In this document: one piece after another, positions 471 through 64,000 of the stretch
Layout of the letters: every line of letters begins with the position of its first letter
Numbering within the stretch: the stretch's first letter is position 1
Source of the DNA: Escherichia phage AnYang
Strand: one strand, 5' to 3'
Sequence record: MK234886
DNA length: 64,000 bases
Translations under genes and position numbers: made by a program
Notes under the pieces: generated by a model
Database searches by the model: none
Seen by the model: the letters and a program-made list of their open reading frames with translations, nothing else
What the model was told of the DNA's origin: nothing

Positions 471-471
471 A

Positions 472-6107: not shown

Positions 6108-6115
<8 letters not shown>
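5900..6115 (-). CDS. hypothetical protein; start probably internal ATG at 6115
   Basis: ORF track 5900..6220 overlaps the upstream ORF by about 110 nt; an ATG at 6115 follows its stop. Confidence 0.3.
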
Positions 6116-7509
<1,394 letters not shown>

Positions 7510-7543
7510 AATAATTTCCTCAATTTTTATAATCCGTAGGAGC

Positions 7544-7573
7544 ATTATACTCTGCTCCCAAGAGTTTGTAAAC
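7544..7573 (-). promoter_or_regulatory. T4-type early promoter with stem-loop
   Basis: -35 GTTTAC (7568..7573), 18-nt spacer, -10 TATAAT (7544..7549) inside inverted repeat GGAGCA...TGCTCC. Confidence 0.6.
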
Positions 7574-7676
7574 TACTTTCCAAAAATACCATTCATACAC
7601 AGGCTGAACACGATACCAAAGCAAAAGAATGCAGCGCCAAATCTAACGGCATCCCAACCGCAAACACATGTCTCAA

Positions 7677-7967
7677 TCATTTGCACTTCTCCTCTTTTAG
7701 GCCGGAACGATAATAACATAACATAGATTTCTGGTCTTGTACATATCTTTTTACGTCATTCAACCAAATACGATGTTCTTGGGAATCTTCAAATGGCATT
7801 CCAACCCAAGCTTTACCATCGATTACCTTAACCTGCCATTTAACATTATGTTCGGCGATAGGTTGTGGCCATGAAGGATGCAGTTGTTGCTTAGGCACTA
7901 CAGGGATGTCCTGGGCACATCCAACTAACAAGCCAATAGATAATACTACCACAGATAATTTAATCAT
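7677..7967 (-). CDS. o-spanin (Rz1-like outer-membrane lipoprotein; pseT.2 equivalent)
   Basis: Signal peptide with lipobox LLVGC; immediately downstream of the i-spanin candidate; T4 pseT.2/pseT.3 position. Confidence 0.65.
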   Translation of the reverse strand: MIKLSVVVLSIGLLVGCAQDIPVVPKQQLHPSWPQPIAEHNVKWQVKVIDGKAWVGMPFEDSQEHRIWLNDVKRYVQDQKSMLCYYRSGLKEEKCK

Positions 7968-8317
7968 TCTGTAATGCTCCTGAAGTCTTCTGTAAAGGAA
8001 TCGAAGGACTTGTTGATTTGTTTTTCGACCAGTCCTGGCTTACTTGCCACCACGTGCGCCTTCTTCGAATCTTTACGGAGCTTTTCATTTTCTACCTTAA
8101 TTTTATCCATTCGGGCATTCATTTCAGTAGTACGGAATTCAATATCCGAGTATTGGCCACGAAGGTCATCCACGGCTTCGGCGTTCTGTTTGGCCGTTTG
8201 CTGGGTTGTTTTCAGTTCTTCGGTTAATGTATCAATACGGCTTGATTGATACGAAATAAAACCGTAAGCACCTACTGCAATGGCTCCAGCTAAAAGGTAA
8301 ATACTTAATTTAGACAT
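7964..8317 (-). CDS. i-spanin (Rz-like; pseT.3 equivalent)
   Basis: N-terminal transmembrane helix followed by a charged, coiled-coil-like sequence. Confidence 0.65.
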   Translation of the reverse strand: MSKLSIYLLAGAIAVGAYGFISYQSSRIDTLTEELKTTQQTAKQNAEAVDDLRGQYSDIEFRTTEMNARMDKIKVENEKLRKDSKKAHVVASKPGLVEKQINKSFDSFTEDFRSITE

Positions 8318-8820
8318 TTGGTAATAATCTCGATGATGTCATCACGTGACAGGGAATTAATAAGAACTGTTTTAGGATTTTCACACTGAATTTTATATGT
8401 TTCAAACATAAAACAGAGTTCTTCAGCGGTATGGTAAGGACTTGAAATACCAAGGCGATTAAACTTGTCGCTTAATGGGTCACAAATCAAATAGAAAGTG
8501 ATGCCTGAGATTTTAACATTAGGTTGGCTAATATTAATGAACACCTCGGCATCGTACTTGGAAAGGTTATTTTGGAGAAACTCAACCATAGAGTTGACAG
8601 CTTCAGGCATAGCCTCGCGCTTTTCTTCCGCATAACGGGTAGAGTATTCTTTTTGCTTGATTTTCTTTTTAGCATTTTTAGCTAAAGTAACACGAAGATC
8701 GGTCAGGTAACCTACTGCACGAGAACCTTTAAAAACTTGGATACCGTCAGTAGAGTCACCAAAAGCCTTAACAACCATTTCGTTAGTAATCATCTGCATA
8801 TTCATTTGTTTTCTCCTCAT
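8305..8820 (-). CDS. alc: Alc-like protein (transcription-termination factor on cytosine DNA), by synteny
   Basis: 171 aa ORF between rnlA and the spanins, where T4 has alc; early promoter 8835..8863 upstream. Confidence 0.5.
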   Translation of the reverse strand: MRRKQMNMQMITNEMVVKAFGDSTDGIQVFKGSRAVGYLTDLRVTLAKNAKKKIKQKEYSTRYAEEKREAMPEAVNSMVEFLQNNLSKYDAEVFINISQPNVKISGITFYLICDPLSDKFNRLGISSPYHTAEELCFMFETYKIQCENPKTVLINSLSRDDIIEIITKCLN

Positions 8821-8834
8821 TAGTTGGTAAGTCT

Positions 8835-8863
8835 ATACTAACACATCATGAGGAGATGTAAAC
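8835..8863 (-). promoter_or_regulatory. T4-type early promoter
   Basis: -35 GTTTAC (8858..8863), 17-nt spacer, -10 TAGTAT (8835..8840). Confidence 0.6.
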
Positions 8864-10011
8864 TACTCTACCACAATTTCTTTCAAATATTTTTCAGGGA
8901 TTTGGGCTTTATGGTTTTTCAAGAACACAGAGTTAATCTGGTCTACAACCGTATCATAATTAATACCACCCACGTACGCCTGCATAAGAATAGAGAACAA
9001 CCCTGGGAAATCCTTAAGGATTAGCTGTCCGGTAACGGCGTAGTCTTTACGGTCGCGGCCTTTGAGTTGAGAGTAAGCTGCTTCCAACAAAGCCAATGAT
9101 TGTTCTAGGTAATCTAAATGGGTACGTTCAAAGGCATCGATTTTCTCAATAGCAAACGAATCTGTACTGAACAGACCACGAAGGTCATCAGTTCCACCTG
9201 CCACTACAACTTCAAACAACCGTTCGTTATTGTTAATGGAATCTTTGGTATGATGTAGTGCACTGTACCAGGCGGTTTTGAGTTTAAAGAACGTACCATC
9301 TTTCAGTACAAAGATGAAACCTTCAATACCCTCTTGTTTACGGATGTTTTCTACGAAATCACCCTCAGCGAGCTCATAGCTTTCAACCAAATGCTTACGC
9401 AGCGCGCCGTCCTTAAACAATTCAGCATACGGAATATACTCACCTGTTTCATTATTACGAACGTTCAACAGGATGAGGTTTGTTTCTTGGTAAGCCAGCA
9501 CGATACGGTTGGTAGGTGCAACATATTCAAGGTTGCAGGTATACCCAGCTTTGGTGATTTCTTCTAGACGTGCGGCAAAAGCCTCATTCTCAGGGAGACG
9601 AAGGAAACGTAAAGAATCATATACCATCGATGAATGGATAGAGCCTTTAGATTTAACAGAAAGATACTGACGGTCCATGAATGTAGAAATCAGAGAACCA
9701 TCTTCCTTAGCCATTACGAGGTCGATATTTTCTGGCGACAAATCCAGACCGATAGTCAGTGGGTTTTCGTCAAGGTTAAAGAACTTTTGCATAGGACGAG
9801 CAGCAATACGTACCGGACCGTTCTCGTCCATTTCAAACATAATGCCTCGGCACTCTAGTGCTCCGTCCTCCAACCAATCAGAGTATGATGCATAGTTATA
9901 ACTAAAGATGCGATAGTTGACTCCTAGCGCACTCTGAAAGTCTTTAAAGAAGAACTTAGATTTAGTCGAGTTTTTAACCAGGGCCATCAAGTTATCATAT
10001 AATTCAATCAT
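8863..10011 (-). CDS. rnlA: RNA ligase 1
   Basis: Close match to remembered T4 Rnl1 (YRIFSYNYASYSDWL, ALECRGIMFEM, EDGSL). Confidence 0.85.
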   Translation of the reverse strand: MIELYDNLMALVKNSTKSKFFFKDFQSALGVNYRIFSYNYASYSDWLEDGALECRGIMFEMDENGPVRIAARPMQKFFNLDENPLTIGLDLSPENIDLVMAKEDGSLISTFMDRQYLSVKSKGSIHSSMVYDSLRFLRLPENEAFAARLEEITKAGYTCNLEYVAPTNRIVLAYQETNLILLNVRNNETGEYIPYAELFKDGALRKHLVESYELAEGDFVENIRKQEGIEGFIFVLKDGTFFKLKTAWYSALHHTKDSINNNERLFEVVVAGGTDDLRGLFSTDSFAIEKIDAFERTHLDYLEQSLALLEAAYSQLKGRDRKDYAVTGQLILKDFPGLFSILMQAYVGGINYDTVVDQINSVFLKNHKAQIPEKYLKEIVVE

Positions 10012-10015
10012 TGCT

Positions 10016-10429
10016 TTATCCTTTTAATCGGTGTTGGGTATTCCAAGGTGGATTAAATTTCTTTATGAACATTGGCTCTTCAAGAGACATGGTCTCAACT
10101 GACATAGTTCCAAGTTCGTTAGTCATCGACAGATTAAAGCACTGCCGTGCATAGAACTCTACCTTTTTACCTGCCATTAATGCTTCATGAATCAGAATGG
10201 ACTTAGTCGAATCCGACGTTTGGTCCTTACGATTAATAGCGGTTCGGTAGTAGTTGATGCGCTTACGAAGATTTTTAGTCTTCCCGATGTAGACTAGTAT
10301 ATCATCAACCGCTATAGCATATATGACATTTTGTTTATTTGGTGCTGTGAGTGGAGCAATGCTGGCGTCATCTTGGAGTTCTAGGGTGACGTACTTGATA
10401 AAGCTAAATTCGTCTGCGATTTCTTTCAT
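10016..10429 (-). CDS. denA: endonuclease II (GIY-YIG family)
   Basis: 137 aa with VYIGKTKNLRKRINYY; sits between nrdB and rnlA as in T4. Confidence 0.7.
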   Translation of the reverse strand: MKEIADEFSFIKYVTLELQDDASIAPLTAPNKQNVIYAIAVDDILVYIGKTKNLRKRINYYRTAINRKDQTSDSTKSILIHEALMAGKKVEFYARQCFNLSMTNELGTMSVETMSLEEPMFIKKFNPPWNTQHRLKG

Positions 10430-10455
10430 AGCAATAAGGGGCCGAAGCCCCGTCC

Positions 10456-11664
10456 TTAAAAATATTTCTTGTATGATGTCATTACCTTTTCATCAACATC
10501 ATTATCAATTTGTGCTACAAGGTAAGAACTGATTTCCACTTCCTGAGGAGCAGCCTGTACAGCATCAGAGTTCAGGTATTCGCGAATCCAAGGATATGGA
10601 TGGCGGGTAGGAGCATCAGTAATAGGACATGGTAAGCCACACTGCTTCATACGAGAAACTGTCAGGTAATCGACAAAAGCACCCATGTTCTGAGTATTTA
10701 ATCCAGGGCAAGTGCCATCTTTGAACAGGTGAGCGGCCCATTCTTTTTCTTGGCGGTTAACTTCCATGAAAATATCAACTGCTTCTTGTTCACACTCTTG
10801 GGCAATTTTAACCCATTCGTCGCCATCAGTACCAAGTTGAAGCTGACGAATAATGTACTGGGTACCTTTAAGGTGGAGCTGTTCATCACGTGCAATGAAC
10901 TTCATAATCTTGGCATTACCTTCCATGATTTCCATGTTTTTATGGAAGTTAAAGGTACATGCGAAAGATACATAAAAACGAATAGCTTCCAATGCGTTGA
11001 TTACGTGCAGGCAGAGGTAAAGAGAACGCATCAGTTCACGTTTCCAATACATCTCATGCTCTATGGCATCTTCAATATCATCTTCGTCTGCGTTAATTTC
11101 TTTTTGGTACTCAATATCAGCTTTAGCATTCTGCCAATATCTAGTTTTCTTTAAAACATCGTCATAATAACGACCAATGGATTCGGCACGTTTCATGATG
11201 GCGTCATCTAACAGAATTTCATCAAATACCTTAGATGGGTCTGTATAGAGGTTACGCATTATATGGGTATACGAACGTGAGTGAATAGTCTCACTAAAGG
11301 TCCATGTAGCAACCCATGTATCAAGGCTAGGGTCAGAAATCAATGCTTGGAGAGCAGCAGAAGGAGCCCGTCCCTGGATACTATCCAGAAGTGATTGATA
11401 CTTCAGGTTATTGGTAAAAATATTTTGCTGGAATTGTGGAAGCTTATTAAACTGGGCAGCATCCATCATCAAGTTAACTTCTTCTGGTCGCCAGAAAAAA
11501 CTCAACTGCTTTTCACAAAGCTCTTCGAATACTTTATGGCGTTGGATATCATAACGAGCAATACCCAATCCTGAACCAAAGAACATCGGTTCGACTAAAA
11601 CATCAACTGGGGTGGTATTAAAAACTGTAGACATATTATTCTCATTTGTTAGTGACTCATCCAT
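10456..11664 (-). CDS. nrdB: ribonucleotide reductase small subunit, uninterrupted
   Basis: 402 aa ferritin-like R2 protein immediately downstream of nrdA; no intron-sized interruption. Confidence 0.9.
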   Translation of the reverse strand: MDESLTNENNMSTVFNTTPVDVLVEPMFFGSGLGIARYDIQRHKVFEELCEKQLSFFWRPEEVNLMMDAAQFNKLPQFQQNIFTNNLKYQSLLDSIQGRAPSAALQALISDPSLDTWVATWTFSETIHSRSYTHIMRNLYTDPSKVFDEILLDDAIMKRAESIGRYYDDVLKKTRYWQNAKADIEYQKEINADEDDIEDAIEHEMYWKRELMRSLYLCLHVINALEAIRFYVSFACTFNFHKNMEIMEGNAKIMKFIARDEQLHLKGTQYIIRQLQLGTDGDEWVKIAQECEQEAVDIFMEVNRQEKEWAAHLFKDGTCPGLNTQNMGAFVDYLTVSRMKQCGLPCPITDAPTRHPYPWIREYLNSDAVQAAPQEVEISSYLVAQIDNDVDEKVMTSYKKYF

Positions 11665-11687
11665 GAGTCAATTATAATCAGATTTTA

Positions 11688-13943
11688 TTAAAGCTTACAT
11701 GCTGCACAATCGTCGGCTTTAGGAGTTTCGATTTCGTAATCGTCAGTACCAGAACCATCACGGGTATTGTGATAATAGAGATTTTTTCCGCCATAATACC
11801 AGAAATATAGCAGGTCATCAAGCATTACAGACATCGGAACTTTTCCTTTTGGAAAAATCTGCGGGTCATAATAAGTGTTTGCTGATGCCGATTGACAAAC
11901 CCATTTCAACATAATCGCCACCTGCGTAAGATAAGGTTTATTACCTTTCTTAGCGAGGGTCCAAGCGTAATCGTAGAGCCCTTGATTATGTTCTACATTA
12001 GGAACTACCTGCCGGAAGTTACCTTCTTTAGATTCTTTAATACTTACTGGGCCACGCGGAGGTTCGATACCGTTTGTAGAGTTGGAAACCTGGCTGCTTG
12101 ATTCACACGGCATAAGTGCTGATAATGTGCTATTACGGATGCCATGTTTAGCCAAGTCTTCCCGCAACGACGTCCAGTCGCAAACATAGTTAGGGGCTGC
12201 GATTTGGTCAATCTTTTTATTGTACCAGTCGATAGGTAATTCGCCTCGAGACCATTTAGTGTCTGAATAATACTCGCAAGGTCCTTTTTCTTCGGCCAGC
12301 TTGATGGATGCTCGGATAAGTCCATATTGTAATCTCTCAAACAGTTCGTGAGTTAAATCGTTAGCGTCTTCATAAGAAGCAAAGTTGCTTGCCAACCAAG
12401 CAGCGTAGTTCGTAACACCTACACCCAGGTTACGACGTTTCTTAGCCTTAAGAGCTTCAGGAACAGGATAATCTTGGTAGTCCAACAGGTTATCAAGTGC
12501 ACGTACTTGTACTTCAGCCAGCTCATTGATTTTGTCTTGGTCTTGCCAATCGAAGTTATCCAGCACAAATGCAGACAACGTACACAATCCGATTTCAGCG
12601 TCCGGACTATTCACGTCAGTAGTCGGGATAGCAATTTCACAACACAAGTTGCTCTGGCGAATAGGAGCTTTCTCACGAATAAATGGTGTGAAGTTGTTAG
12701 TGTTATCAACGAACTGAGGATAAATTCGTGCAGTGCCTGAACGTTCAGTCATGAACAATTCAAAAAGGTCACGTGCTTTAATACGTTTCTTACGAATACT
12801 AGGGTCTTTTTCAGCAGCTTCATACAATTCACGGAAACGGTCTTGGTCTTCGAAATAAGAATGGTAAAGCTCACCACTCATTTCATGAGGACTAAACAGG
12901 GTAATGTAATCATTTTTGCCGAAACGTTCCATCATAAGGTCATTCAACTGGATTCCGTAGTCCATATGACGAATACGGTTCTCATCGACACCCTTGTTGT
13001 TTTTCAGAACGAGCAGATTCTCAACTTCCAAATGCCAAATAGGATAATAAGCAGTAGCAGCGCCGCCACGGATTCCACCTTGTGAACATGATTTAACAGC
13101 AGTCTGGAAATGTTTCCAGAATGGAATAACACCAGTATGTTTGACTTCGCCCATGCCAATACGAGAACCTTCAGCACGAATCATACCAACGTTGATACCA
13201 ATACCTGCACGTTTAGAAATGTATTCAATTATTGAGTTAGCAGTTTTGTTAATAGATTTCAGTGAGTCGCCTGCTTCAATAACCACACAAGAACTAAATT
13301 GACGGGTTGGTGTACGTGCTCCGGCCATAATAGGAGTAGGCAACGAAACCTGACGAGTACTTACAGCATCATAAAAACGGATAATATGCGCTAAACGATT
13401 ACCCGGCTCTTCTTGGTGCAACGCCATACCAATGCACATAATAGCGAACTGAGGAGTTTCGTAGATTTTACCGGTTGTTTTATCTTTAACCAAATATTTC
13501 TCTTTCAGCTGCATTGCGCCTGCATAGGTCAATTCAAAGTCACGTTCATGCTTGATATGAGATTCTAAGAAAGTAATTTCTTCTGCAGAATATCGAGACA
13601 GCAATTCGGGGTCATATTTACCTTCGTTAACACAATAGGAAATATGGTCGATAAAACTACGTGGTTCAAACTGGCCGTAAACTTCTTTACGCAGTGCAAA
13701 CATCAATTGCTTTGCAGCAACATATTGGTAATCAGGCTCTTCAACCGAAATAAGGTTGGCTGCTACCTTAACAGTCAGATTCTGGATATCTTTGGTAGTC
13801 ATACCATCACGAAGATGAGATTTGATTTCTTCGTATAATTCATAGGGGTCGATTTGGGTTCCTTCACAGCCCCAAGTCAGAACTTTAATAATTTTTTGTG
13901 CGTCAAAATCTTGGGATACACCACTACTTTTTTGTACTTGCAT
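11688..13943 (-). CDS. nrdA: ribonucleotide reductase large subunit
   Basis: 751 aa class I RNR alpha subunit; C-terminal CAACKL-type tail. Confidence 0.9.
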   Translation of the reverse strand: MQVQKSSGVSQDFDAQKIIKVLTWGCEGTQIDPYELYEEIKSHLRDGMTTKDIQNLTVKVAANLISVEEPDYQYVAAKQLMFALRKEVYGQFEPRSFIDHISYCVNEGKYDPELLSRYSAEEITFLESHIKHERDFELTYAGAMQLKEKYLVKDKTTGKIYETPQFAIMCIGMALHQEEPGNRLAHIIRFYDAVSTRQVSLPTPIMAGARTPTRQFSSCVVIEAGDSLKSINKTANSIIEYISKRAGIGINVGMIRAEGSRIGMGEVKHTGVIPFWKHFQTAVKSCSQGGIRGGAATAYYPIWHLEVENLLVLKNNKGVDENRIRHMDYGIQLNDLMMERFGKNDYITLFSPHEMSGELYHSYFEDQDRFRELYEAAEKDPSIRKKRIKARDLFELFMTERSGTARIYPQFVDNTNNFTPFIREKAPIRQSNLCCEIAIPTTDVNSPDAEIGLCTLSAFVLDNFDWQDQDKINELAEVQVRALDNLLDYQDYPVPEALKAKKRRNLGVGVTNYAAWLASNFASYEDANDLTHELFERLQYGLIRASIKLAEEKGPCEYYSDTKWSRGELPIDWYNKKIDQIAAPNYVCDWTSLREDLAKHGIRNSTLSALMPCESSSQVSNSTNGIEPPRGPVSIKESKEGNFRQVVPNVEHNQGLYDYAWTLAKKGNKPYLTQVAIMLKWVCQSASANTYYDPQIFPKGKVPMSVMLDDLLYFWYYGGKNLYYHNTRDGSGTDDYEIETPKADDCAACKL

Positions 13944-14071
13944 AATTTCCTCAATATGTTAGGTTCTATAATTATTCTATCATAGAACCTGTTAAGCATG
14001 GACTGATATTTATAGAATGAAATTCAGTCCGACCATAATAACCAAAAACAGAGTACAGATTATTTGAATTT

Positions 14072-15760
<1,689 letters not shown>

Positions 15761-15785
15761 TTTATTCTCCTTAGTTGATAAGGCT

Positions 15786-15815
15786 ATAGTATCACTACCA
15801 TAGCCTGGTGTAAAC
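15786..15815 (-). promoter_or_regulatory. T4-type early promoter with stem-loop
   Basis: -35 GTTTAC (15810..15815), -10 TACTAT (15786..15791); inverted repeat AGGCTAT...ATAGCCT. Confidence 0.6.
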
Positions 15816-16043
15816 TTATTTTTGAATTAAGCCCATATAAAATTTAGCGTCTTCCGGGTGCATACCGTCACAATACTCGTCAGCCATAAAGCGGGTAAGG
15901 TCTTCAAGAGGACCTTGGACTTCAATTTGCATACTGCAGAATTGCGTATCTTTAATATAGGTCATAACTAAAGAAGGATAACGATTACGGATAACTTCGT
16001 AAGTGTATTCAAAATCAACGATATCAATATTAACCTTAGCCAT
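15816..16043 (-). CDS. hypothetical protein (frd.x position)
   Basis: ORF track; SD GAGGA; promoter 16074..16102 upstream. Confidence 0.4.
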
Positions 16044-16073
16044 TTTATTTTCCTCATGTAGTTGATAGGTTCT

Positions 16074-16102
16074 ATAGTATCATGTTTAAAGGCATTGTAA
16101 AC
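16074..16102 (-). promoter_or_regulatory. T4-type early promoter
   Basis: -35 GTTTAC (16097..16102), 17-nt spacer, -10 TACTAT (16074..16079). Confidence 0.6.
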
Positions 16103-16111
16103 CATTAAATG

Positions 16112-16138
16112 CCAAAAAGGGAAGACCGAAGTCTTCCC
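16112..16138 (-). terminator. intrinsic terminator downstream of gene 32
   Basis: GGGAAGAC-TTCG-GTCTTCCC hairpin followed by a TTTTT run. Confidence 0.75.
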
Positions 16139-16154
16139 ATTATAAATCAATAAC

Positions 16155-17066
16155 TTATAGACCAGCTAACAGGTCGTCCAGACCATCGTCATCAGAAGGA
16201 CTTACTGACGGCTCAGGAGTAGTGGAACGAGCAGGTGTAGACGGTTTGGAATCATATGCATCAAGGTCTGCACTGAATGCGTCCAGGTCATCACCAATCT
16301 TATCAGCGGCTGCAGATGCGACAGCGGCAGCACCACCAAGAGCAGCTGTACCAACAACTTTCTTAAACTTAGCTTCGTTAGTTTCGAATGATTTGAACTC
16401 GAGCAGTTTAGAAAGGTCGTGCATTTCTTCCATCAATTTAGCTTGGTAAGCTTCATCATTGATGTTAGGAATTTCAGACTGACCCATGAATTTGGAATCG
16501 TCATAGTTCTTGAAGTCGCCAACTTTCTTAGATTTCAGTACGAAGTTCGCACCATCAAACGGACATGTTACGTCAACCGGCACTTCACCGATATCAGTAT
16601 CAACTTCAACCATCTGGTTGATTTTATCCATAATTTTCTGACCGAAACGGAATTTAAACACTTTACCTTCGTTAGCAGGCACTGCACTATCCTTAATAAC
16701 AAGGATGTTAGCCCAGAAGGAAGTTTTACGTTTCATCAGTTTGTATTCGGCATTATTAGTATTAAAGGTATCATTCTGGTTCATGTATTTACATACAGGA
16801 CATGAATCGAAATCACCATGAGTAGACGTACATGATTCGATATACCACTGACCATTTTTCTTAAAACCATGGTTAACAAGCTTAACGAATGGGGATGGAT
16901 TAGCTTCGTTTTTCGAAGGAAGGAATCGAATAACTGCGGTTCCTACGCCATTGTCATCTTTCAATTTCCATTCGGATTTGTCATCAGACGAGAAAGAAGA
17001 GCCACCTTTCATTGCAGACAGTTGAGCAGCAAGTTCAGCAGGATTACGGCGTTTAAACATAGACAT
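16155..17066 (-). CDS. 32: gp32 single-stranded DNA-binding protein
   Basis: MFKR..AELAAQ, WKLK, zinc site CxxC and acidic C-terminal DDLL tail; near-identical to remembered T4 gp32. Confidence 0.95.
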
Positions 17067-17110
17067 ATTATTTACCTTATTTGATATATTTAATAAATTT
17101 ATTAACAGTT
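17067..17110 (-). promoter_or_regulatory. candidate gene 32 translational operator (A/U-rich leader)
   Basis: Leader AAUAAAUUUAUUAAAUAUAUCAAAUAAGGUAAAUAAUAUG is A/U-rich and unstructured, as expected for gp32 autoregulation. Confidence 0.4.
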
Positions 17111-17164
17111 GTTGTTATCACGTTTACCTTGATAACTAGGTTTTGAAGATGAAGTAATTATATA

Positions 17165-17809
17165 TCACTTCGAATAAAGCATTTTTAACTTAATGAATTC
17201 AGGGTCATCATTAGGAACCCAACCCTCATTAAATTGTTTAATCATACTCTTTGATGTAGTTTCACTAACATTTATACCAGAGTTAATGAGACGCCTCCAT
17301 CCACAAGCTCTTCCACTAGAATTAATTATACAATAATTAGTATAAGCAATATCACTAAGCATCCAATCTAAAGGGTTTGCTCTAGAAGTTTTCCAAGGAC
17401 GGTAATCGGGTTGATTCATATAGTTAGCAGCTTTCATATGGGCTCTAACTTCAGGACGTTTGGCTGGGTGAGTGCATCCAAAGACTCCAAATCCGCCACC
17501 GGCATAAACCAAATTAAAATAATCATCATTATCTCTAGCTTGAACTTCCAATTGTTCTGAACGTTCAATATTAATAACAATATCAAATGGCGTTATAGCC
17601 AAAATTTCAACAATAGGTTTTTCTTCTTCGAGGGCCTCTTTAAATCTTGATTGCTCGCAAGAGGTCCAATACTCTTTACCTTTACAGTCAATAATCACGC
17701 CATTTTCAAAAGTACAATTAGTTTTAGAACCTATGTACGAAAACGGCTTAATATTATTAGCCTGACGATTAAGCCAAGTCATTTTATAAACTATATTCAA
17801 AATTGACAA
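17165..17809 (-). CDS. hypothetical protein (T4 segG position); possible degenerate GIY-YIG-like N-terminus
   Basis: ORF track start is a TTG; N-terminus IVYKMTWLNRQANNIKPFSYIGS weakly resembles GIY..YIG, but the real start is uncertain. Confidence 0.35.
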   Translation of the reverse strand: MSILNIVYKMTWLNRQANNIKPFSYIGSKTNCTFENGVIIDCKGKEYWTSCEQSRFKEALEEEKPIVEILAITPFDIVINIERSEQLEVQARDNDDYFNLVYAGGGFGVFGCTHPAKRPEVRAHMKAANYMNQPDYRPWKTSRANPLDWMLSDIAYTNYCIINSSGRACGWRRLINSGINVSETTSKSMIKQFNEGWVPNDDPEFIKLKMLYSK

Positions 17810-18450
17810 CTCTTAATAGTCTCAATGAATAATTTTCTTGCCTCTACAGCATCTATTATAAGAATTTTTTTGTAAGCATTTAATTTAGTCGAATACTTAG
17901 ACCACACTAAATCGTTAGTCTTTTCATCGTGCTTATCAATTATACCCATAAATGAATCAAGCAAAATAAACGTTTCGAATGAAATCACATTTGATTGAAG
18001 GAGCTTAAAAATATAGCTCGAGTTAACTTTTTTATTATAATCAAAAATTTCAGAAAGCGCTTGAACTTCCACTTTCTTACTAAAATAATAAATGTTTTTG
18101 ATATCATCCTCAAAAACTTGTTTTATTCTTTTAAGTCTACCGATATATTCTCGGTAAAAGACTAAGGCGTCAGCATCACTGATGTCGCCAATCCATGCGT
18201 CTTGGTTAGCCACCAAGTTACTCATGAAGATAAGAGCAAGCTCTTTCAAAGTGTATTTATCACTCAATTTCTCAAAGAAATATTTGTCACGACGTTTTTG
18301 ATAAGCCGTATCAGAGATTCGCATGACCCAGTTATATTTTATAACGTCGTATTTGGCATTGAAGTGATGTTTAAGTTGCAAATATAAAGAATACACGCTC
18401 TTACCATTCACCATACGATTGCTGTTTGGTGGCATACGAATCTTAATCAT
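17797..18450 (-). CDS. 59: gp59 helicase loader
   Basis: 217 aa, near-identical to remembered T4 gp59. Confidence 0.9.
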   Translation of the reverse strand: MIKIRMPPNSNRMVNGKSVYSLYLQLKHHFNAKYDVIKYNWVMRISDTAYQKRRDKYFFEKLSDKYTLKELALIFMSNLVANQDAWIGDISDADALVFYREYIGRLKRIKQVFEDDIKNIYYFSKKVEVQALSEIFDYNKKVNSSYIFKLLQSNVISFETFILLDSFMGIIDKHDEKTNDLVWSKYSTKLNAYKKILIIDAVEARKLFIETIKSCQF

Positions 18451-19129
18451 GATATTTCCATCCGGTCCACTTATCGCTTTTTAATCTGTAACTAACCAAA
18501 CTATTAGATATTCCGAATTTGGAAGCCACTTCAGAACATGAATCATAACATATTCCATCGATAAGCAATTTCTTTTTGTATAAGTCTTTAAAAGATTGTG
18601 GCCTAGGTCCTGTATTTGCCTTAAGAAGAGCAGCTCTTGTACTATCAGGCATTTTAGGTCCTTTCTTACCTGCTCTGGATTTACTTAGAGCTTTTCGATG
18701 TGCATCGGTAAGATTAATACCTTTATTTGGTGAAGGTATATTTCTAAGTCTTCTTGTTATAGAAACTTTTTTACAAACACTATCAGGTCGTGGAATACCT
18801 AATTTAGATTTACTTATAGCAAGTTTATGTTCTTCAGATATTTTCTTACCAAGTCCACCTTTACCGCCAACAACCAAATTATAAGTATTCGGGTCTGAAA
18901 CAAATTCTTCGTTAACGAGTTCTCGCTCTTTATCAAAGGCCTCCTCTTGGGAATCCATAACAAAGAGAATTTCTTTTTCAAAATTCTCTATACCATGTTT
19001 TAATATAGCCTTCTTAATTAACTTACCTGAACCCATATAATGGTCATGGCGTTTGGTTTCTTTATGCACACCGATATAAATTTTACCATTCAATTTATTG
19101 GTTACTTTATATACGGTGTGTTTAATCAT
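18443..19129 (-). CDS. freestanding GIY-YIG homing endonuclease (Seg-like)
   Basis: YKVTNKLNGKIYIGVHKE GIY-YIG motif with repeated basic NUMOD-like segments; inserted between 59 and 33. Confidence 0.7.
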   Translation of the reverse strand: MIKHTVYKVTNKLNGKIYIGVHKETKRHDHYMGSGKLIKKAILKHGIENFEKEILFVMDSQEEAFDKERELVNEEFVSDPNTYNLVVGGKGGLGKKISEEHKLAISKSKLGIPRPDSVCKKVSITRRLRNIPSPNKGINLTDAHRKALSKSRAGKKGPKMPDSTRAALLKANTGPRPQSFKDLYKKKLLIDGICYDSCSEVASKFGISNSLVSYRLKSDKWTGWKYHD

Positions 19130-19428
19130 AACAAGAAATCCAGAGTATTAGTCTTTTGCGTTCTGGCCATTGAAGGTCGAAGCAAGTTATCATCAATGGC
19201 TTCGTTCATAATTTTATCAATAATTCCTGCAGGCAAATAACGAGCAAAGTTACCTTCAGGGATGCTGTTCTCTTCCAACCATGCGGTAGCCGCTTCGAGG
19301 TAACTACAACCTTCAGCCTCAACAAAGGCCTCAATATCAAGGCCATTCTGTTGTTTGTTTACCAATACATGGACGGGTTCGGAAGCGGTATTAACCGCTC
19401 CATCAAAATCATTCAAAGATTGTGTCAT
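19126..19428 (-). CDS. 33: gp33 late-transcription co-activator
   Basis: C-terminus EENSIPE...IDDNLLRPS..KTNTLDFLL matches remembered T4 gp33. Confidence 0.85.
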   Translation of the reverse strand: MTQSLNDFDGAVNTASEPVHVLVNKQQNGLDIEAFVEAEGCSYLEAATAWLEENSIPEGNFARYLPAGIIDKIMNEAIDDNLLRPSMARTQKTNTLDFLL

Positions 19429-19687
19429 ACAGTTCTACCACTTCAGTTTTTTCGTCTTCGAAACGTTCACGAGTGCCTTTATGGTACAAGGAGAACAGCT
19501 GGTTAAACATTTTACCATCTACACCAAGTTCAGTCTTAGCACGGTCTTTGATATCTTTAATTTCGTCACCGTAAGCTTCCATTTTTAATTTAGTATCGGA
19601 AGCCGACTTAATCAGTTGTGCCAATGTGTTACCATGTTCTTCTTGATTGAATTCAACTTTCACTTTTTCTTTAGCCATTATATTCAC
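19409..19687 (-). CDS. dsbA: DsbA-like double-stranded DNA-binding protein, by synteny
   Basis: About 90 aa between 33 and rnh as in T4. Confidence 0.55.
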   Translation of the reverse strand: MNIMAKEKVKVEFNQEEHGNTLAQLIKSASDTKLKMEAYGDEIKDIKDRAKTELGVDGKMFNQLFSLYHKGTRERFEDEKTEVVELYDTIFE

Positions 19688-19688
19688 C

Positions 19689-20636
19689 TTAATAAAAATC
19701 AGCTACTGTAGCGGTTAGTTTAGACAAACCGGATTTAACGAAATAAGGATAAACTTTAGATTTCGAAGGTTTGTTATACGTATTATATCTTTCAGTAATT
19801 AAAGCAACAATATCATCTGGAATAAAGTCCATATCAATTAAGATTTGGTTTTCACAGAAACGTTCATATTGTTCTTCAGTAAGAAGTGTTTTAATTATAT
19901 CATGGTCATAATAATTAAGAGCAATTGCTTCAAGTTCCTTGGCACGAGTGCTAGGAGTACGTTCGCCTTCAACCATTGTCAACCAGTAATCACCACGAAC
20001 TTTAATACTCGCAACGTTATCTTTACGGTCGCCTTTAACTACTTTAGTTACACAATCAAGCAAGGCATCGCCAGATTTCGTTTTGACGAATTTTTTCTGC
20101 ATTGGAGACCATTGTTTTACCCCAGGGAATTTATGAAGTTGGGTAAAGTCACCATCCGAAGAACCGATCATAACAGGATGGCCTAAAGCCGTGAGGATGC
20201 GAGTCAATACAGCAATATGGTCATCAGCTTCGATTGTATCGATATTCATAACAATATAAGGCATGTTTTGTTCCAGTTCATCAACAATAATATGCATTGC
20301 AGTGAATAAACCTTCCCAATCAAATGGTGATTCGTCACGTGCCTTAGCACGGTTTTTCTTATAATAAGAAGAATAACGACGACGCCAATAACCTGATTTA
20401 GAGTTATCGACACAAATGATTAATTGGTTGTAACCTTGTTTTTTAAAGTCTTTAATGTTTTTCTTAATTGAATTCAACACGAGATGTCGAAGCATTGCTG
20501 TAGTTACTTTAGGAAATCCAGCATTTTCACCAAATTCTTGGAAAGCCGCAGCCATAATGATTTGGCTGAAGTCTAACAACAAGAATCCATCTTTTTGTTG
20601 GTCTTCTTCAGGAAGTAAAAAATCTAAATCGTTCAT
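19689..20636 (-). CDS. rnh: RNase H (5'-3' exonuclease/flap endonuclease)
   Basis: Strong match to remembered T4 RNase H; start set to ATG 20636 because the ORF-track start lies inside the promoter -10. Confidence 0.9.
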   Translation of the reverse strand: MNDLDFLLPEEDQQKDGFLLLDFSQIIMAAAFQEFGENAGFPKVTTAMLRHLVLNSIKKNIKDFKKQGYNQLIICVDNSKSGYWRRRYSSYYKKNRAKARDESPFDWEGLFTAMHIIVDELEQNMPYIVMNIDTIEADDHIAVLTRILTALGHPVMIGSSDGDFTQLHKFPGVKQWSPMQKKFVKTKSGDALLDCVTKVVKGDRKDNVASIKVRGDYWLTMVEGERTPSTRAKELEAIALNYYDHDIIKTLLTEEQYERFCENQILIDMDFIPDDIVALITERYNTYNKPSKSKVYPYFVKSGLSKLTATVADFY

Positions 20637-20667
20637 ATGAACCTCTGTCCAATTAGTGTAGAGGTTC

Positions 20668-20696
20668 ATTATATCATGACCCTAGAAGAAGTAAAC
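20668..20696 (-). promoter_or_regulatory. T4-type early promoter (rnh)
   Basis: -35 GTTTAC (20691..20696), 17-nt spacer, -10 TATAAT (20668..20673). Confidence 0.6.
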
Positions 20697-20703
20697 ACTT
20701 TGC

Positions 20704-20711
20704 TATAAATA
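20704..20711 (+). promoter_or_regulatory. T4 late promoter (gene 34)
   Basis: Exact TATAAATA about 33 nt upstream of the gene 34 ATG. Confidence 0.7.
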
Positions 20712-20743
20712 GTTCTATACCCTGAAAACGAAAAGGAAATAAA

Positions 20744-23700
20744 ATGGCTGATATTTTAAAACCTGCATTCCGTGCTACATCCGGACTCGATGCTGCGGGC
20801 GAGAAAGTTATCAATGTTGCCAAAGCCGATTACAATGTATTAGATGATGGCGTCAACGTTGAATTCTTTATAGATGAGAACACCATCCAGGCGTACGACG
20901 AGACGCGCGGATATAAGAAAGGGTTTGCAGTAATCCATGACCAACGTATCTGGGTTTCTCAACGTGATATCGATGCTCCTGCAGGAACTTTTACTCCGGG
21001 CTATTGGACCGCTACCCGTACCGACCCTAAATGGATTACCGTAGCATCTCCTACACGCCAGCTGGCTTCCGGTGAATATATTGCGGTGGATTCCGCTGCT
21101 AGCTTTACTACATTTACCCTGCCTCCGAACCCTACTGATGGCGATACCGTTGTAATTAAAGATATTGGTGGACGTGTTGGTTATAACGAAATCAAGGTCC
21201 AATCTAGTTCTGCTCCTGGCGGCGGTAACCAGAAAATTGTTCGTTTTGGTAATCAGTTTACTGAGACCTTAATTACGAAGCCTTTTTCTTATAACATGAT
21301 TATCTTTGCTAACCGTCTTTGGCATTTCTGGGAAGCCGGTAATGAAGAACGTGGTATTCGGGTAGAACCGAACATGGCCCAGTTCCAATCACAAGCAGGT
21401 GATAACGTTCTTCGTCGTTATACTTCAGGTGCAGTAATTAAGTTTACCCTTCCTAAGTATGCGAACCAAGGCGATATGATTAAAACCGTTGATATTGATG
21501 GTTTAGGAAGTAAATTCCACTTAATCGTTGAAACGTTTGATGCTTCGTCTGCATTAGGTAAACCTGGTCAGCATAGCATGGAATTCCGTACCTCCGGTGA
21601 TGGATTCTTTGTTTATAACTCTACCGAAAAATTATGGTATGTTTGGGACGGCGACCGTCAAACTCGTTTACGTGTAATTCGTGACGATGTTGAGCTCTTG
21701 GCTAATGAAAGTGTTATTGTTTTTGGCCCTAATAATACAACGCCGCAGACGATTAATATCACATTACCCACAAGCGTAGCGCAGGGCGATACAATTAAAA
21801 TAGCGTTGAACTATCTTCGTAAAGCCCAGACAGTAAATATTAAGGCTGCTGTAGGAGACAAAATAGCTTCTTCGGTTCAATTGCTCCAGTTCCCTAAACG
21901 CTCTGAATATCCGCCGGATACTGAATGGGTTCTGAATGATGTGCTGACCTTCAATGGTAACTTGAGTTATACTCCTGTTATTGAGCTTAGCTATATTGAA
22001 GATTCTACTACAGATGCCAAATATTGGGTTGTGGCTCAGAACGTTCCTACTGTAGAACGTGTGGATTCTAAGGATGATTTAACCCGTGCTCGTCTTGGTG
22101 TTATTGCTCTAGCGTCACAGACCCAAGCAAACGTAGACCATGAAAATAATCCTGAAAAAGAACTGGCTATCACTCCACAGACTTTAGCCAATCGTGTAGC
22201 GACTGAATCACGTCGTGGTATTGCTCGTATTGCTACAACTGCTCAGGTAAACCAGAATACTGGATTTGCATTCCAGGACGATTTGATTATTTCTCCTAAG
22301 AAATTAAACGAACGTACTGCTACCGAAACTCGTCGTGGTGTAGCTGAAATTGCTACGCAACAGGAAACTGATGCAGGTGTTGATGATACAACCATTATCA
22401 CTCCTAAGAAGCTACAGACGCGCCAGGGAACTGAAACCCTGTCCGGTATAGTAAAATACGTATCCACCACAGGAACCACTCCTGCGACTTCTAGAGCAAC
22501 TGTAGGTACTAACGTTTATAATAAGAACACAACTACTTTGGTTATTTCTCCTAAAGCTTTAGACCAATATAAAGCTAACTACGAGAACCAAGGCGCTGTA
22601 TATCTTGCAACTGCCCCGGAAGTTAATGCTGGTACTACTAATCCTGGATTCCAGAATGCTGTAGTTACTCCTGAAATGTTACACCAACGTGTGGCCCTTG
22701 ATAGTCGTACAGGTTTAATTGAAATTGCTACGCAAGCAGAAACTGATACTGGAACTGATTATACTCGTGCGGTAACGCCTAAGACGTTAAATGATAGAAA
22801 GGCTACAGAGACTTTAACGGGTATTGCTCGTATTGGTACTCAAGTAGAATTTGATGCAGGTGTATTAGATAATGTTATTTCAACTCCGTTGAAAGTTAAA
22901 ACAAGATTTAATGATACTGCTAGAACTTCTGTCTCAGCAGCCAGTGGTTTGATTGAATCAGGAACCTTATGGAACCATTATACACTAGATATCCGTGAAG
23001 CAAGTAATACTCAACGTGGTACGGCTCGTTTGGCTACCCAAACTGAAGTTAATACTGGTACTGATGACAAAACAATCATCACTCCACTTAAGCTTCAAGC
23101 TAAAAAGGCTACCGAAAACGCTGAAGGTATTATCCAACTCGCTACTCAGGCCGAAGTTATTGATGGTACGGTAAGTAATAAAGCGTTTAGTCCTAAGCAT
23201 TACAAATATATCGTCCAACAGGAAAAATCCTGGGAAGCTACTTCTGCTCGTAGAGGATATGTTAAATTAACCACAGGTACAGCCACTTGGGAAGGTGACG
23301 ATACTAATGGTTCTGTTGCTAACCTAGCTAAATTTGAAGATAACGGCTTTGCTATTTCCCCTCTTCAAATGAACACTGCTTTAACTCATTATCTTCCGAT
23401 TAAAGGTAAGGCTTTTGACAGTGATAAATTAGATGGATTTGATTCTACGCAGTTTATTCGTCGTGATATAGCACAAGATATTAATGCTAATATGACATTT
23501 AAACAGCCTGTAAGAATTGAAAACACTTTAGCGGTCACCGGTGCGGTTAATTTGAGTGGCTCTGTTATTTCAAATAATACTACATTAACCGGTTCTACTA
23601 CAGTCAATAGCAATTCTACTATGGGTGCTTTGAATTACATTGAGTTCACTTCAGAATCTCAAGGTGCGGGTACTTGGAACTCTCAACACAATAGTAATGT

Positions 23701-55254: not shown

Positions 55255-55945
55255 TATCTCTAAAAGAGTATATTAAATTTTTGAGAGCACTTGCGGTAAC
55301 GTCATATTTACCTTTAAGTTCTTTGACTACAGGACCTGTAGTTGGTTTACCTAATGAAAGCCAAATATTATAGATTTCGCTTTTCAATGGTTCATGCCAA
55401 TGAGGAGCAGTTCGTTGAGCTTTAGAAGTGGCTTCAGATATTAATTTATTCCCACCATTCTCATAAAACTCTTTCATTATTTCTGATTGACGAGCTTTAC
55501 GTTCAGGCCTATTCTGAGCTATAGCTTGAGCCTTCCTCATTTTAATCTTAGTTTCAGGTTTATTTAATCTAAGCTTGTGCTCTATACACTGTTCTTCAGT
55601 CCATTTATGTCCTTCGCTGCCAGCGCCACCTGGTAATATATTCAAGCATTCGTTAGGATGCTTTTCTCTTATTTTGGCTATTAAAAGTCTTTCATGATTA
55701 AAAGATTCTTCTAAATTTTGGTGGCCTACAAACCAACGTATTTTATATTTTAGACCATACTTTTTATACATATTCCATAAGATTTTGCCAGAACCTGGAT
55801 ATCTATCTTTATTTGGATTTAGTATAAAGGTTTCATGTTTACCACCATACCAAAAGACGCCTTTCGGCGTCCTAATTTTTATCAAATAAGTTCTATAAAA
55901 CTTAGCCTTAATAGCCACGGTCCTGCCTTGCAAAGTTTTCAGCAT
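55250..55945 (-). CDS. freestanding GIY-YIG-like homing endonuclease (segF-like position)
   Basis: YLIKIRTPKGVFWYGGKHE N-terminus with basic helix-rich C-terminal half; adjacent to gene 56 as T4 segF. Confidence 0.55.
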   Translation of the reverse strand: MLKTLQGRTVAIKAKFYRTYLIKIRTPKGVFWYGGKHETFILNPNKDRYPGSGKILWNMYKKYGLKYKIRWFVGHQNLEESFNHERLLIAKIREKHPNECLNILPGGAGSEGHKWTEEQCIEHKLRLNKPETKIKMRKAQAIAQNRPERKARQSEIMKEFYENGGNKLISEATSKAQRTAPHWHEPLKSEIYNIWLSLGKPTTGPVVKELKGKYDVTASALKNLIYSFRDI

Positions 55946-56426
55946 TCTTCAGATAATAAAGTTTAAACATTTCTTCAGCCGACATATTCAGGCCAATAGC
56001 CATATTGAATACGAAGTGCATAATATCAATGAGTTCAAATTTAATTTCAAGCTGGTCTTCAGGAGACATTTCTGAAATAGGTTTGGCTTGTGCTTCCGGG
56101 TAACGGGCTTTCCATTTTTTCCATACAGCAGATGCATCTTTCTCACCTTTAGACATTTCACCGAGGGAAGTCAGAAGTTCACGGAATTCATCGTCAATAC
56201 AATCTTTCTGTTCACGCATCCAAGCAACAACATCACCGGCTGTCGCTAATTTGTCCGGATGGTAACAATATTCACGGTCATTAGCCAAACGGACCTGTAA
56301 TGATTTCTGCATATCAAGCATAACCTGCAGAGGGTCTTTATCTTCGTGAATCAGAGCATTAAAATAAGCTTCCTCAGCTTTATCAACACCGTCAATCAGG
56401 TTTGCGCATTCGTTAAAGTATGCCAT
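55908..56426 (-). CDS. 56: gp56 dCTPase/dUTPase (MazG-like)
   Basis: 172 aa; size and position match T4 gp56; EE-rich MazG-type motifs. Confidence 0.85.
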   Translation of the reverse strand: MAYFNECANLIDGVDKAEEAYFNALIHEDKDPLQVMLDMQKSLQVRLANDREYCYHPDKLATAGDVVAWMREQKDCIDDEFRELLTSLGEMSKGEKDASAVWKKWKARYPEAQAKPISEMSPEDQLEIKFELIDIMHFVFNMAIGLNMSAEEMFKLYYLKNAENFARQDRGY

Positions 56427-61562: not shown

Positions 61563-61876
61563 CTCTTAGATTTAATTTTATCCAGTTCTTCTTGTATTTG
61601 CATTGTAACACATTTTTCTACATGAAGCGCTAGCTCTTCTTTTCGGTCTTCGGAAGGTGTTCCGAAATCAACCGACACTTTTCCATCTTTCTCAATAACA
61701 ATATTCATCACATAAACGATGTGAGCAGTGCCATCCGGTAAAGTAAGCATAATTTCCTGCTTAACAGAACCCATTGACTTACGGATTATATCTAATGATT
61801 TCTCATAATAACGAGGGTCACTAGGACCCTCTTCGGCATCTTTAACAAAATTATCTAAATCAGATAAATCAGTCAT
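61547..61876 (-). CDS. hypothetical protein at the T4 gene 40 position
   Basis: 109 aa between 41 and uvsX; synteny only. Confidence 0.4.
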   Translation of the reverse strand: MTDLSDLDNFVKDAEEGPSDPRYYEKSLDIIRKSMGSVKQEIMLTLPDGTAHIVYVMNIVIEKDGKVSVDFGTPSEDRKEELALHVEKCVTMQIQEELDKIKSKRWWKW

Positions 61877-63050
61877 GGTCGCTCACAAAATTCATGTTTT
61901 CTAAATCGCTTTCGATGTCAGCGGCGCTTTGGGTATTTCCACCTAATTTAACAGCAACGTTTTTAGAGACACGAGAGTTAATAAGGTCGTTCACTGCATC
62001 GTCAACTTCTTTAATAGAATTAATTGCACCAAGCTTATACTTATTCTCGATTGCTTCACGGAACGGAGCGTGTTTAAACAGAGGTCCCCAGAACTCAACA
62101 CAATCGGTAGCTTTAGCACGCCATGCTTTTTCTTCTTGAACCATTTCACCTGTGGTTTCGTCAAGGAATGCACGATTATACCAACCAGCTTTAGGTTTCA
62201 CGACAAAGCCGATATCGGTAGCCATTTCAAGCAGACCAGAGAACGGGTCGATACCACCTTCGAAGTTAACGGTGATAGGGAACGTTGATTTCTCTTTAAC
62301 CGTACGAGATTTCTCTGCTTTCAGTGTGAAGTCATAACCAGTGAGCTCAGTACCATCTTTAACTTGGCGTTTAGAGATAAAGAACACGGTAGAAGCAGAG
62401 TACAGAATACCAGTACCACCACCCATAATCTCTTTAGGATACATTCCACCAATTTCCATAGCCGTGTGGTTAATTGCTACGCAAGGGATATCCTTGATGG
62501 TCAGATAAGGTGTTACGATACGGAACAGAGATTTCAGTGACTTAGCACGAGTCATATCACCTACAACTTTCTCGTTCAAAGCATCTTCGGTTTCTTTCTT
62601 AGAAGCAGTGTTACCAATGGAGTCGATAAAGATAATAACCTTTTCGCCACGAGTAATTTCTTCTAACTGGTTGGTCATATCAACTTTAAGCTGTTCGACT
62701 GACTGGATTGGTGTATGAACCACACGTTCCAAATCAACACCCATCGAACGGAAATAAGATTCTGAAGCACCAAACTCAGAGTCATAGAACAAACAAATTG
62801 CGTCTGGATATTTCTTCATATATGCCGCAACCATGGTAAGTCCAAACAACGTTTTAAAGTGTTTAGATGGGGCAGCAAAGATTGTCAAACCTGATTGTAA
62901 GCCTGCATTCAATGCACCGCCTAATGCAATATTCAGCATAGGGATACGAGTAGGAACTTCGTCACGACCATTAAACAATTTAGATTTGGTCAGGTCGGCA
63001 GTCATTTTAGAAGTAGAAGCTTTAATCAAACGGGATTTTAAATCGGACAT
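61869..63050 (-). CDS. uvsX: UvsX recombinase (RecA/Rad51-like)
   Basis: 393 aa; RecA-fold with Walker A region; size and position match T4 UvsX. Confidence 0.9.
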   Translation of the reverse strand: MSDLKSRLIKASTSKMTADLTKSKLFNGRDEVPTRIPMLNIALGGALNAGLQSGLTIFAAPSKHFKTLFGLTMVAAYMKKYPDAICLFYDSEFGASESYFRSMGVDLERVVHTPIQSVEQLKVDMTNQLEEITRGEKVIIFIDSIGNTASKKETEDALNEKVVGDMTRAKSLKSLFRIVTPYLTIKDIPCVAINHTAMEIGGMYPKEIMGGGTGILYSASTVFFISKRQVKDGTELTGYDFTLKAEKSRTVKEKSTFPITVNFEGGIDPFSGLLEMATDIGFVVKPKAGWYNRAFLDETTGEMVQEEKAWRAKATDCVEFWGPLFKHAPFREAIENKYKLGAINSIKEVDDAVNDLINSRVSKNVAVKLGGNTQSAADIESDLENMNFVSDHD

Positions 63051-63127
63051 TATATTTTTCCATAGGCACCATTATATTTTACTCACGTTTTAAGATAGGG
63101 TAATTATATCACTTCACATTTACAGCG

Positions 63128-63991
63128 TTAAAGGACCACGTCCTCATAACTTGGCATTTCGTGCTCAGAATGGATGTGGGCACCGAAATAAATGAATTCA
63201 GCCAGTCCAGGATGGAATACTAAACCAGGATTCTCATGATAAATGATATGAGGTCTTGATTTCAGAATCTGGTAATATTCAACCTTACTCGGTTTGAATT
63301 TAATAATCTCTACATCAGGACGATAGTCTTCACGTTTAAATGAATCATTCGGATCGGTGATATAAAGACGAGCACCTTCAGCCGCAGCTTGGTCTACAAC
63401 TCTTTCGAATTGATAACACTTATCAGAGATACGGAACGGATGGAAAATACCATCAATTTTAATAGGCGCTAGACCTTCAGAGTAACGCTCAATTACTGCG
63501 GGATTAATTACCTTTTGGTCTACAAAAATCTTATCAGAGGACGCACCTCGTGACACCAGGACGTCTTTCTGACATTGATTCAGGACTGTAGTATAAATCG
63601 AACGTTCAACTGAAGACACGTCGATATCAATGAACTCATCAATATAATAACGAGGAACTTCAGGGTCCATTGTAATGTTAAAGTTGAATTGTACAGTCTG
63701 AGTGCCATCATAACCTGTGATATCGGTTACTAATCCTGAGCAGTCATAGTATTCGATTAATGAATCAACGACGAACTCGTTTTCAGACCAAAAATGTTTA
63801 CGGGTTTCATAAGCATTTTCTTTATACCAAAGCGGCACAAAATTCAGTTCAGGAAACAATTCAATACATTCTTTGATATCGCTCGAATTTCTAGGATAAG
63901 CCAGATAATCACCTGGGCGAGCACGGTTTAAATGGAGTTGAAAATTGCCGTCCTTAAGGACGGCATATTCACCTGTTTCGTAACTACGCAT
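63128..63991 (-). CDS. hypothetical protein at the T4 beta-gt position; may extend beyond window end
   Basis: 287 aa ORF with no resemblance to my recollection of T4 beta-glucosyltransferase; first Met is 10 nt from the window edge. Confidence 0.45.
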   Translation of the reverse strand: MRSYETGEYAVLKDGNFQLHLNRARPGDYLAYPRNSSDIKECIELFPELNFVPLWYKENAYETRKHFWSENEFVVDSLIEYYDCSGLVTDITGYDGTQTVQFNFNITMDPEVPRYYIDEFIDIDVSSVERSIYTTVLNQCQKDVLVSRGASSDKIFVDQKVINPAVIERYSEGLAPIKIDGIFHPFRISDKCYQFERVVDQAAAEGARLYITDPNDSFKREDYRPDVEIIKFKPSKVEYYQILKSRPHIIYHENPGLVFHPGLAEFIYFGAHIHSEHEMPSYEDVVL

Positions 63992-64000
63992 ACTGAAAAT

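Follow-up and report, generated by a model that had tools for sequence, protein, structure and literature searches.

The open reading frame (ORF) beside uvsX in Escherichia phage AnYang (record MK234886) probably encodes the glycosyltransferase that attaches the first arabinose to 5-hydroxycytosine (5hoC), i.e., the base-proximal arabinosyltransferase of the 5hoC pathway. The ORF (positions 63128..64000, minus strand) closes the window, our term for the whole 64,000-nt stretch of DNA that was analyzed, and was annotated as a putative 5-hydroxycytosine arabinosyltransferase 1, ortholog of RB69 gp47+gp46. Arabinosyl-5-hydroxycytosine is a recently recognized hypermodification that guards the DNA of T4-like phages against restriction enzymes, DNA glycosylases, and some CRISPR systems, and the base-proximal transferase is the least characterized step of its pathway. 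In 2021, the literature listed RB69p047 as "n/a" and stated that several phage groups "lack any known arabinosyl transferases." The RB69 gp46:47/DLP3 gp79 family has since been assigned computationally as arabinosyltransferase 1, with the Dhakaviruses listed among the syntenic clusters (Lee et al. 2026, PMC13326640). The identity of the gene is already explained by the 2025-2026 literature, which has filled a real gap spotted in the first-pass annotation; the accessible literature holds no proof of the enzymatic step and no demonstration of transfer activity for any family member. Orthology, fold, synteny, co-occurrence with Asn169-type synthases, and the absence of other known DNA glycosyltransferases were computed here; the donor, the acceptor, transfer on DNA versus nucleotides, the stereochemistry, and the mono-arabinosyl outcome are what we infer.

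Within the window, the ATG at position 63991 opens a 287-aa ORF (63128..63991, minus strand). The first-pass annotation suspected that the ORF was longer, and the frame upstream of this ATG is indeed open to base 64000 (ATT TTC AGT). The relatives used for comparison (C6, JS98, IME08, and Bp7, genus Dhakavirus) share 94-97% nucleotide identity with the window (megablast), whose counterpart in phage C6 is 128878..169530 plus 1..22771. In these four relatives, the gene spans 894 nt and encodes 297 aa, with the N terminus MSLFIVPIFS-MRSY (MSLFIVPIFS-MRSYETG in C6 and JS98); the true start codon is therefore placed 21 nt past the window edge, with the first 7 codons outside and codons 8 to 297 plus the stop codon inside. 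The ATG at 63991 corresponds to an internal methionine (Met11), because the residues that precede it are conserved across the family (P7, I8, and S10 in >90% of those of the 89 members that have them); M11-R12-S13 is invariant in the 89 members. The ORF is a genuine gene and not a chance reading frame, since 290 open codons have a probability of ~2e-9 at this base composition, codon differences are mostly synonymous (26 synonymous and 3 non-synonymous against C6; 50 and 8 against JS98), and homologs occur in 349 phage records (tblastn). It occupies the place of beta-gt in T4, as first described, and also that of segA, and the next gene downstream in transcription is uvsX (RecA-like recombinase; 61869..63050, minus strand), a landmark outside the modification pathway.

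The ORF protein falls in PHROG 3891 (E 4e-152), which has no function label, and is homologous over its full length to the RB69 gp46:47/DLP3 gp79/TH1_063 family. It is 63% identical to the homolog in Serratia phage LC53, 51% identical to the ortholog TH1_063 of Shewanella phage Thanatos (E 2e-96), and 49.5% identical to homologs in DLP-type Acinetobacter phages. RB69 ORF047c aligns with window positions 64000..63485 (69% identity) and RB69 ORF046c with 63472..63131 (64% identity); the two are collinear and in one frame, so the window gene is the intact form of a gene split in the old RB69 record, where the split is a sequencing error (Lee et al., NAR 2026, PMC13326640). The JS98 record labels its ortholog "similar to RB69 orf047c." An exhaustive HMMER search returned 229 cluster representatives at E≤1e-3, nearly all metagenomic. 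Neither the ORF protein nor any of 89 relatives matched Pfam at E≤1, and searches of NCBIfam and of PDB sequences with the ORF protein and an 89-member profile gave no family and no sequence relative. The dissimilarity to T4 beta-gt that had been remarked upon at the outset was borne out (BLASTP E 0.6; hhalign probability, 0.14%), no relation to RB69 gp3 was detected (hhalign probability, 0.2%), and no alignment to a protein of unrelated known function was found. A very divergent homolog (hhalign, 99.5%; 22% identity) that has lost almost all invariant residues occurs in Serratia phage Muldoon (4215-7925), between an Asp169 hydroxymethylcytosine (hmC)-type dCMP hydroxymethylase and two other glycosyltransferases, one of them a true beta-gt. 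Perhaps the copy in this glucosyl-hmC phage is a relic or has been repurposed.

A search for glycosyltransferase folds had been proposed as a check. The ORF protein has a GT-B fold, with two Rossmann-like beta/alpha/beta domains and an inter-domain cleft. Its best structural matches among glycosyltransferases are GT4-type retaining enzymes (sucrose-phosphate synthase 6kih, BshA, PimA, MshA, and WaaG), over 244-265 of the 297 residues at 8-11% identity. In the C-terminal domain, it appears to share with them an invariant Arg after the first strand, together with an acidic residue on the helix after a conserved loop. R197, K246, and H270-P-G do not vary among the 89 members, all of which have E or D at position 275; these residues stand at the secondary-structure positions expected for basic residues that would bind the donor diphosphate and an acidic one that would bind the ribose, as assigned by position and without superposition. 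The ORF family differs from GT4-type enzymes in that H270-P-G-x-x-E/D275 apparently replaces the EX7E motif and the C-terminal domain is much smaller; the protein matches neither PF00534 nor PF13439 in Pfam, nor the CAZy GT4/Pfam Glycos_transf_1 (PF00534) model that includes EX7E.

Genes just past the window edge were taken from the 96-97% identical genomes of C6 and JS98. In transcriptional order toward the ORF, they encode a 557-aa NTP_transferase+APH-kinase fusion (41-44% identical to RB69 gp53:52), a HAD phosphatase (63% identical to RB69 gp51), a thymidylate-kinase-like (TMK-like) P-loop protein (37% identical to RB69 gp45), and, directly upstream of the ORF, a 232-aa ThyA homolog (79% identical to RB69 gp48) whose stop codon overlaps the start of the ORF gene (ATGA) in both genomes. 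RB69 gp48 has been shown by experiment to make 5-hydroxy-dCMP (5hodCMP), and Asn at E. coli ThyA position 169 is diagnostic of a 5hodCMP synthase (Lee et al., PMC13326640). The Dhakavirus ThyA homologs carry N169, D177, and E143, whereas T4 gp42 has D169, and in C6 and JS98 the ORF gene directly adjoins this Asn169-type homolog. The same association was found in Thanatos, in LC53, and in three distant metagenomic phage lineages (glycosyltransferase identity, 38-43%; contigs of 52, 135, and 356 kb): an Asn169 ThyA homolog adjoins the family member or lies at most one gene away (adjoining it in the case of TH1_063), and a gp45-like TMK-like kinase adjoins the glycosyltransferase in all of them. 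On the 135-kb contig, the family member comes with the ThyA homolog and the kinase, but no gene for sugar activation lies within 8 kb. The Asn169 ThyA homolog has a Flavodoxin_2 (flavin reductase-like) gene as a neighbor on two metagenomic phage contigs (positions 1-523 of one and 6798-7292 of the other); the Flavodoxin_2 products are candidate suppliers of reduced flavin to the flavin-dependent 5hodCMP synthase.

Inside the window, the phage keeps the gp56 dCTPase/dUTPase (~55908..56426, minus strand; tblastn of C6 gp56 to window 56426..55911, 76% identity), as the first-pass annotation recognized, and this enzyme goes with fully substituted cytosine; C6 gp56 has Pfam dUTPase_2/PRA-PH matches. 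A weak ThyA-family match at window positions 14279-14575 is the ordinary thymidylate synthase (td) of the phage, which together with the ThyA homolog gives it two ThyA-superfamily enzymes of different chemistry.

The complete Dhakavirus genome (C6) was searched with tblastn and contains no homolog of T4 alpha-gt or beta-gt or of RB69 gp3, gp49, gp50, or gp55. With T4 gp42 as the query, the sole match in the whole genome was the ThyA homolog, and there is no gene-42-type hydroxymethylase. The proposed check for gene 42 and alpha-gt elsewhere, run on this genome, found neither, and none of the ten largest C6 proteins labeled hypothetical contains a glycosyltransferase domain. RB69 gp3-type glycosyltransferases, proposed as the second arabinosyltransferase (HY126 structure, PDB 9iqz), were found in 212 records, all Mosigvirus, Acinetobacter phages, or one Tegunavirus, with no Dhakavirus, Serratia, or Shewanella phage among them. 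The type (RB69 gp3, HY126 glycosyltransferase [PDB 9iqz, 9ir0], and Bas46 "Aat") has no detectable sequence relation to the ORF and differs from it in its length of 366 aa, recognizable GT4 sequence features, and rIIA-topoisomerase locus; it is absent from Dhakavirus, Winklervirus, and Thanatos. Published sugar counts track glycosyltransferase content: LC53 and Thanatos, in which the family of the ORF is the sole glycosyltransferase, carry one arabinose/pentose on 5hoC; RB69, Bas46, and NP, which have gp3 in addition, carry one and two arabinoses; and DLP3, with three glycosyltransferases, carries up to three. This leaves the family of the ORF as the only candidate for base-proximal transfer. 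Since the Dhakavirus genome is without a second (RB69 gp3-type) transferase, the phage DNA is predicted to carry mono-arabinosyl-5hoC and not glucosyl-hmC, a prediction that bears on host range, sequencing, and phage engineering; the accessible literature yielded no nucleoside analysis or DNA-modification measurement of a Dhakavirus.

The Dhakavirus arabinosylation cluster (C6 10219-14064) is a reduced version of that of RB69, in which the gene orthologous to the ORF is split in two in the record. Both UDP-arabinose genes named above, for the HAD phosphatase and the NTP_transferase+APH fusion, are kept in C6 and JS98; the arabinose-5-phosphate (A5P) isomerase (RB69 gp55), the U32-peptidase-like gene (gp50), gp49, and the second transferase (gp3) are missing genome-wide. 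Arabinose-5-phosphate is made in E. coli by KdsD/GutQ in Kdo metabolism, and the missing phage isomerase suggests that Dhakaviruses rely on these host enzymes for it. C6 ORF47 (166 aa), near the position of the isomerase in RB69, is 29% identical to an LC53 protein.

Taken as a pathway, cytosine replacement would begin with gp56 dCTPase, which would convert dCTP to dCMP and remove it from the pool. The flavin-dependent ThyA homolog would then hydroxylate dCMP to 5-hydroxy-dCMP, and kinases would phosphorylate the product to its triphosphate, which the phage polymerase would insert instead of C. In parallel, the HAD phosphatase and the bifunctional sugar kinase/uridylyltransferase would turn arabinose-5-phosphate into UDP-arabinofuranose (UDP-Araf). 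The ORF protein (297 aa, compact GT-B, nucleotide-sugar-dependent) would take arabinose from UDP-Araf and attach it to the 5-OH of 5hoC, and the resulting mono-arabinosyl-5hoC would shield the DNA from restriction and CRISPR nucleases.

The scheme above puts the first sugar on DNA, as in T4. It is unlikely, though worth weighing, that the first arabinose is instead added to the free nucleotide, 5-hydroxy-dCMP, on its release from the translationally coupled hydroxylase; the TMK-like kinase would then phosphorylate the bulky arabinosyl-5hodCMP, and the polymerase would insert an already glycosylated dNTP. Lee et al. (PMC13326640) say that their data do not separate mononucleotide from DNA as the target of the first arabinose, and single DLP3 glycosyltransferases supplied with UDP-Araf or UDP-Arap and 5hoC-DNA gave no arabinosylation in their assays. 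Hints that leave room for a nucleotide-level step, none of them decisive, include the ThyA(Asn169)-glycosyltransferase-kinase triad, conserved in every lineage examined even where sugar-activation genes are not nearby, and the ATGA overlap in C6. Also among them are the inactivity of isolated first glycosyltransferases on 5hoC-DNA in vitro, the ability of the phage gp1 dNMP kinase to handle 5hodCMP, and metagenomic members that are tentatively fusions of a glycosyltransferase with a TMK-like domain. At least 430 aa are present in 18 of the 260 family members retrieved. Among the long members inspected, P0231 and P0256 have a C-terminal TMK-like domain after the glycosyltransferase, and P0138, P0149, and P0217 have an N-terminal HAD-motif domain before it. 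These fusions are tentative: the hhalign probability is 52% for the kinase, whose Pfam TMK match (E 1e-4) is sub-threshold, and 0.35% for the HAD domain, in which DxDG/GDDxYD motifs can be seen; neither phmmer nor small-profile searches detected kinase or HAD domains in the long members. If the assignment of the ORF is true, the Dhakaviruses are a minimal natural system (one glycosyltransferase, no phage isomerase) for the enzyme and for the timing of the first sugar, before versus after replication.

That the ORF protein makes the donor as a UDP-pentose pyrophosphorylase (sugar-1-phosphate uridylyltransferase) and transfers nothing, a function reported for TH1_063 alone, is very unlikely. Purified TH1_063 formed UDP-xylose from UTP and xylose-1-phosphate and transferred no pentose to DNA, dCMP, dCTP, or cytosine (Brandt et al., AEM 2025, PMC12838424). 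None of these acceptors had a 5-hydroxyl, however, and a no-enzyme reaction is the only control described, which leaves room for host GalU-type contamination. The report is also at odds with fold and pathway logic. The structural neighbors of the ORF protein are GT-B enzymes, and it has no Pfam NTP_transferase match, unlike NDP-sugar pyrophosphorylases, which have a nucleotidyltransferase (Rossmann-like, GT-A-type) fold with an N-terminal GxGxR signature. A candidate for the role is already present in the cluster: the NTP_transferase+kinase protein, whose HY126 ortholog, AfhE, reportedly has UDP-arabinose pyrophosphorylase activity. Also against this reading, the family occurs on the 135-kb contig away from sugar-activation genes, and a pyrophosphorylase would leave the mono-arabinosylated phages with no transferase. 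In Thanatos, which is mono-pentosylated, TH1_063 is the only protein with a GT fold.

An arabinosyltransferase is also preferred over a GT-B-fold enzyme that acts on a nucleotide sugar without transferring it (epimerase- or mutase-like), which we regard as highly improbable. In its favor, the top Foldseek PDB matches, ahead of any glycosyltransferase, are non-hydrolyzing UDP-GlcNAc 2-epimerases (E 8e-7), and a predicted "epimerase" in the Mosigvirus cluster is mentioned in the Durham-collection paper. Such UDP-GlcNAc 2-epimerases share the GT-B fold and are not transferases. The ORF protein has no match to Pfam Epimerase_2 (PF02350) and was not placed in that class.

Equally improbable is an enzyme acting on hmC, or one that places a sugar other than arabinose (e.g., from a host UDP-hexose) on 5hoC. 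The beta-gt position of the gene would suit it, as would the loss of the RB69 A5P isomerase and U32-like gene and the minimal metagenomic cluster with no sugar activation, and Rhizobium phage RL38J1 adds hexoses to 5hoC. The isomerase is present in RB69, LC53, and other phages, so its absence means that the Dhakavirus sugar could differ from arabinose. Against this, the partner ThyA homolog is of the Asn169 5hoC type and close to the verified RB69 enzyme, gene 42 is missing, the UDP-Araf route retains its HAD phosphatase and kinase/uridylyltransferase, and arabinose-5-phosphate is available from the host. The first-pass proposal of an alternative hmC-modifying transferase accordingly stands in one half: a replacement DNA-base glycosyltransferase is the best explanation, and the acceptor is most likely not hmC. 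The predicted sugar is arabinose rather than glucose. In outline, the ORF product would work as T4 beta-gt does, being a GT-B enzyme encoded at the same genomic position with a UDP-sugar as its predicted donor and a C5-substituted cytosine as its predicted target. It shows no sequence similarity to beta-gt (GT63) or alpha-gt (GT72), is 50-100 residues shorter, and has no hmC-making gp42 partner. Its predicted acceptor is the 5-OH of 5hoC, where an aryl ether linkage would form directly on the ring, and its predicted sugar is arabinofuranose; the T4 enzymes place glucose on the hydroxymethyl of hmC.

An RNA polymerase binding protein, the product name given to the orthologs in the C6, IME341, SHP1, LC53, and Rgz1 GenBank records, is effectively refuted by the enzyme fold with its invariant polar residues and by the lack of similarity to the genuine RpbA that the same genome encodes (BLASTP over 36 residues, E 0.23), and the label was dropped. 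The real rpbA lies elsewhere in these five genomes, and the labels look like a propagated annotation error. The arabinosyltransferase assignment would set right the product names "hypothetical protein" and "RNA polymerase binding protein" in dozens of therapeutic-candidate coliphage genomes.

The spacer between the ORF stop and the uvsX start is 77 nt long (63051..63127, minus strand), as in C6 and Bp7; JS98, IME08, and IME341 have an insertion of ~125 nt there (two-piece matches). A sigma-70-like TTAACG-17-TATAAT match lies at 63131..63103, and a scan of the spacer gave 5 promoter-like sites versus 3.7 expected, which is not above chance; no terminator-like site was found on its minus strand. 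Around gp56, the protein is only 76% identical to the C6 copy while the flanking DNA is about 96% identical, and window positions 55254-55907 have no megablast match in C6; positions 55254-56426, around a pathway gene, look like the site of a local mosaic replacement. Other stretches with no megablast match to C6 are 17035-17813, 18450-19122, 23430-24092, and 26652-31259, the last and largest covering the distal long-tail-fiber gp37/gp38 region and probably reflecting host-range variation.
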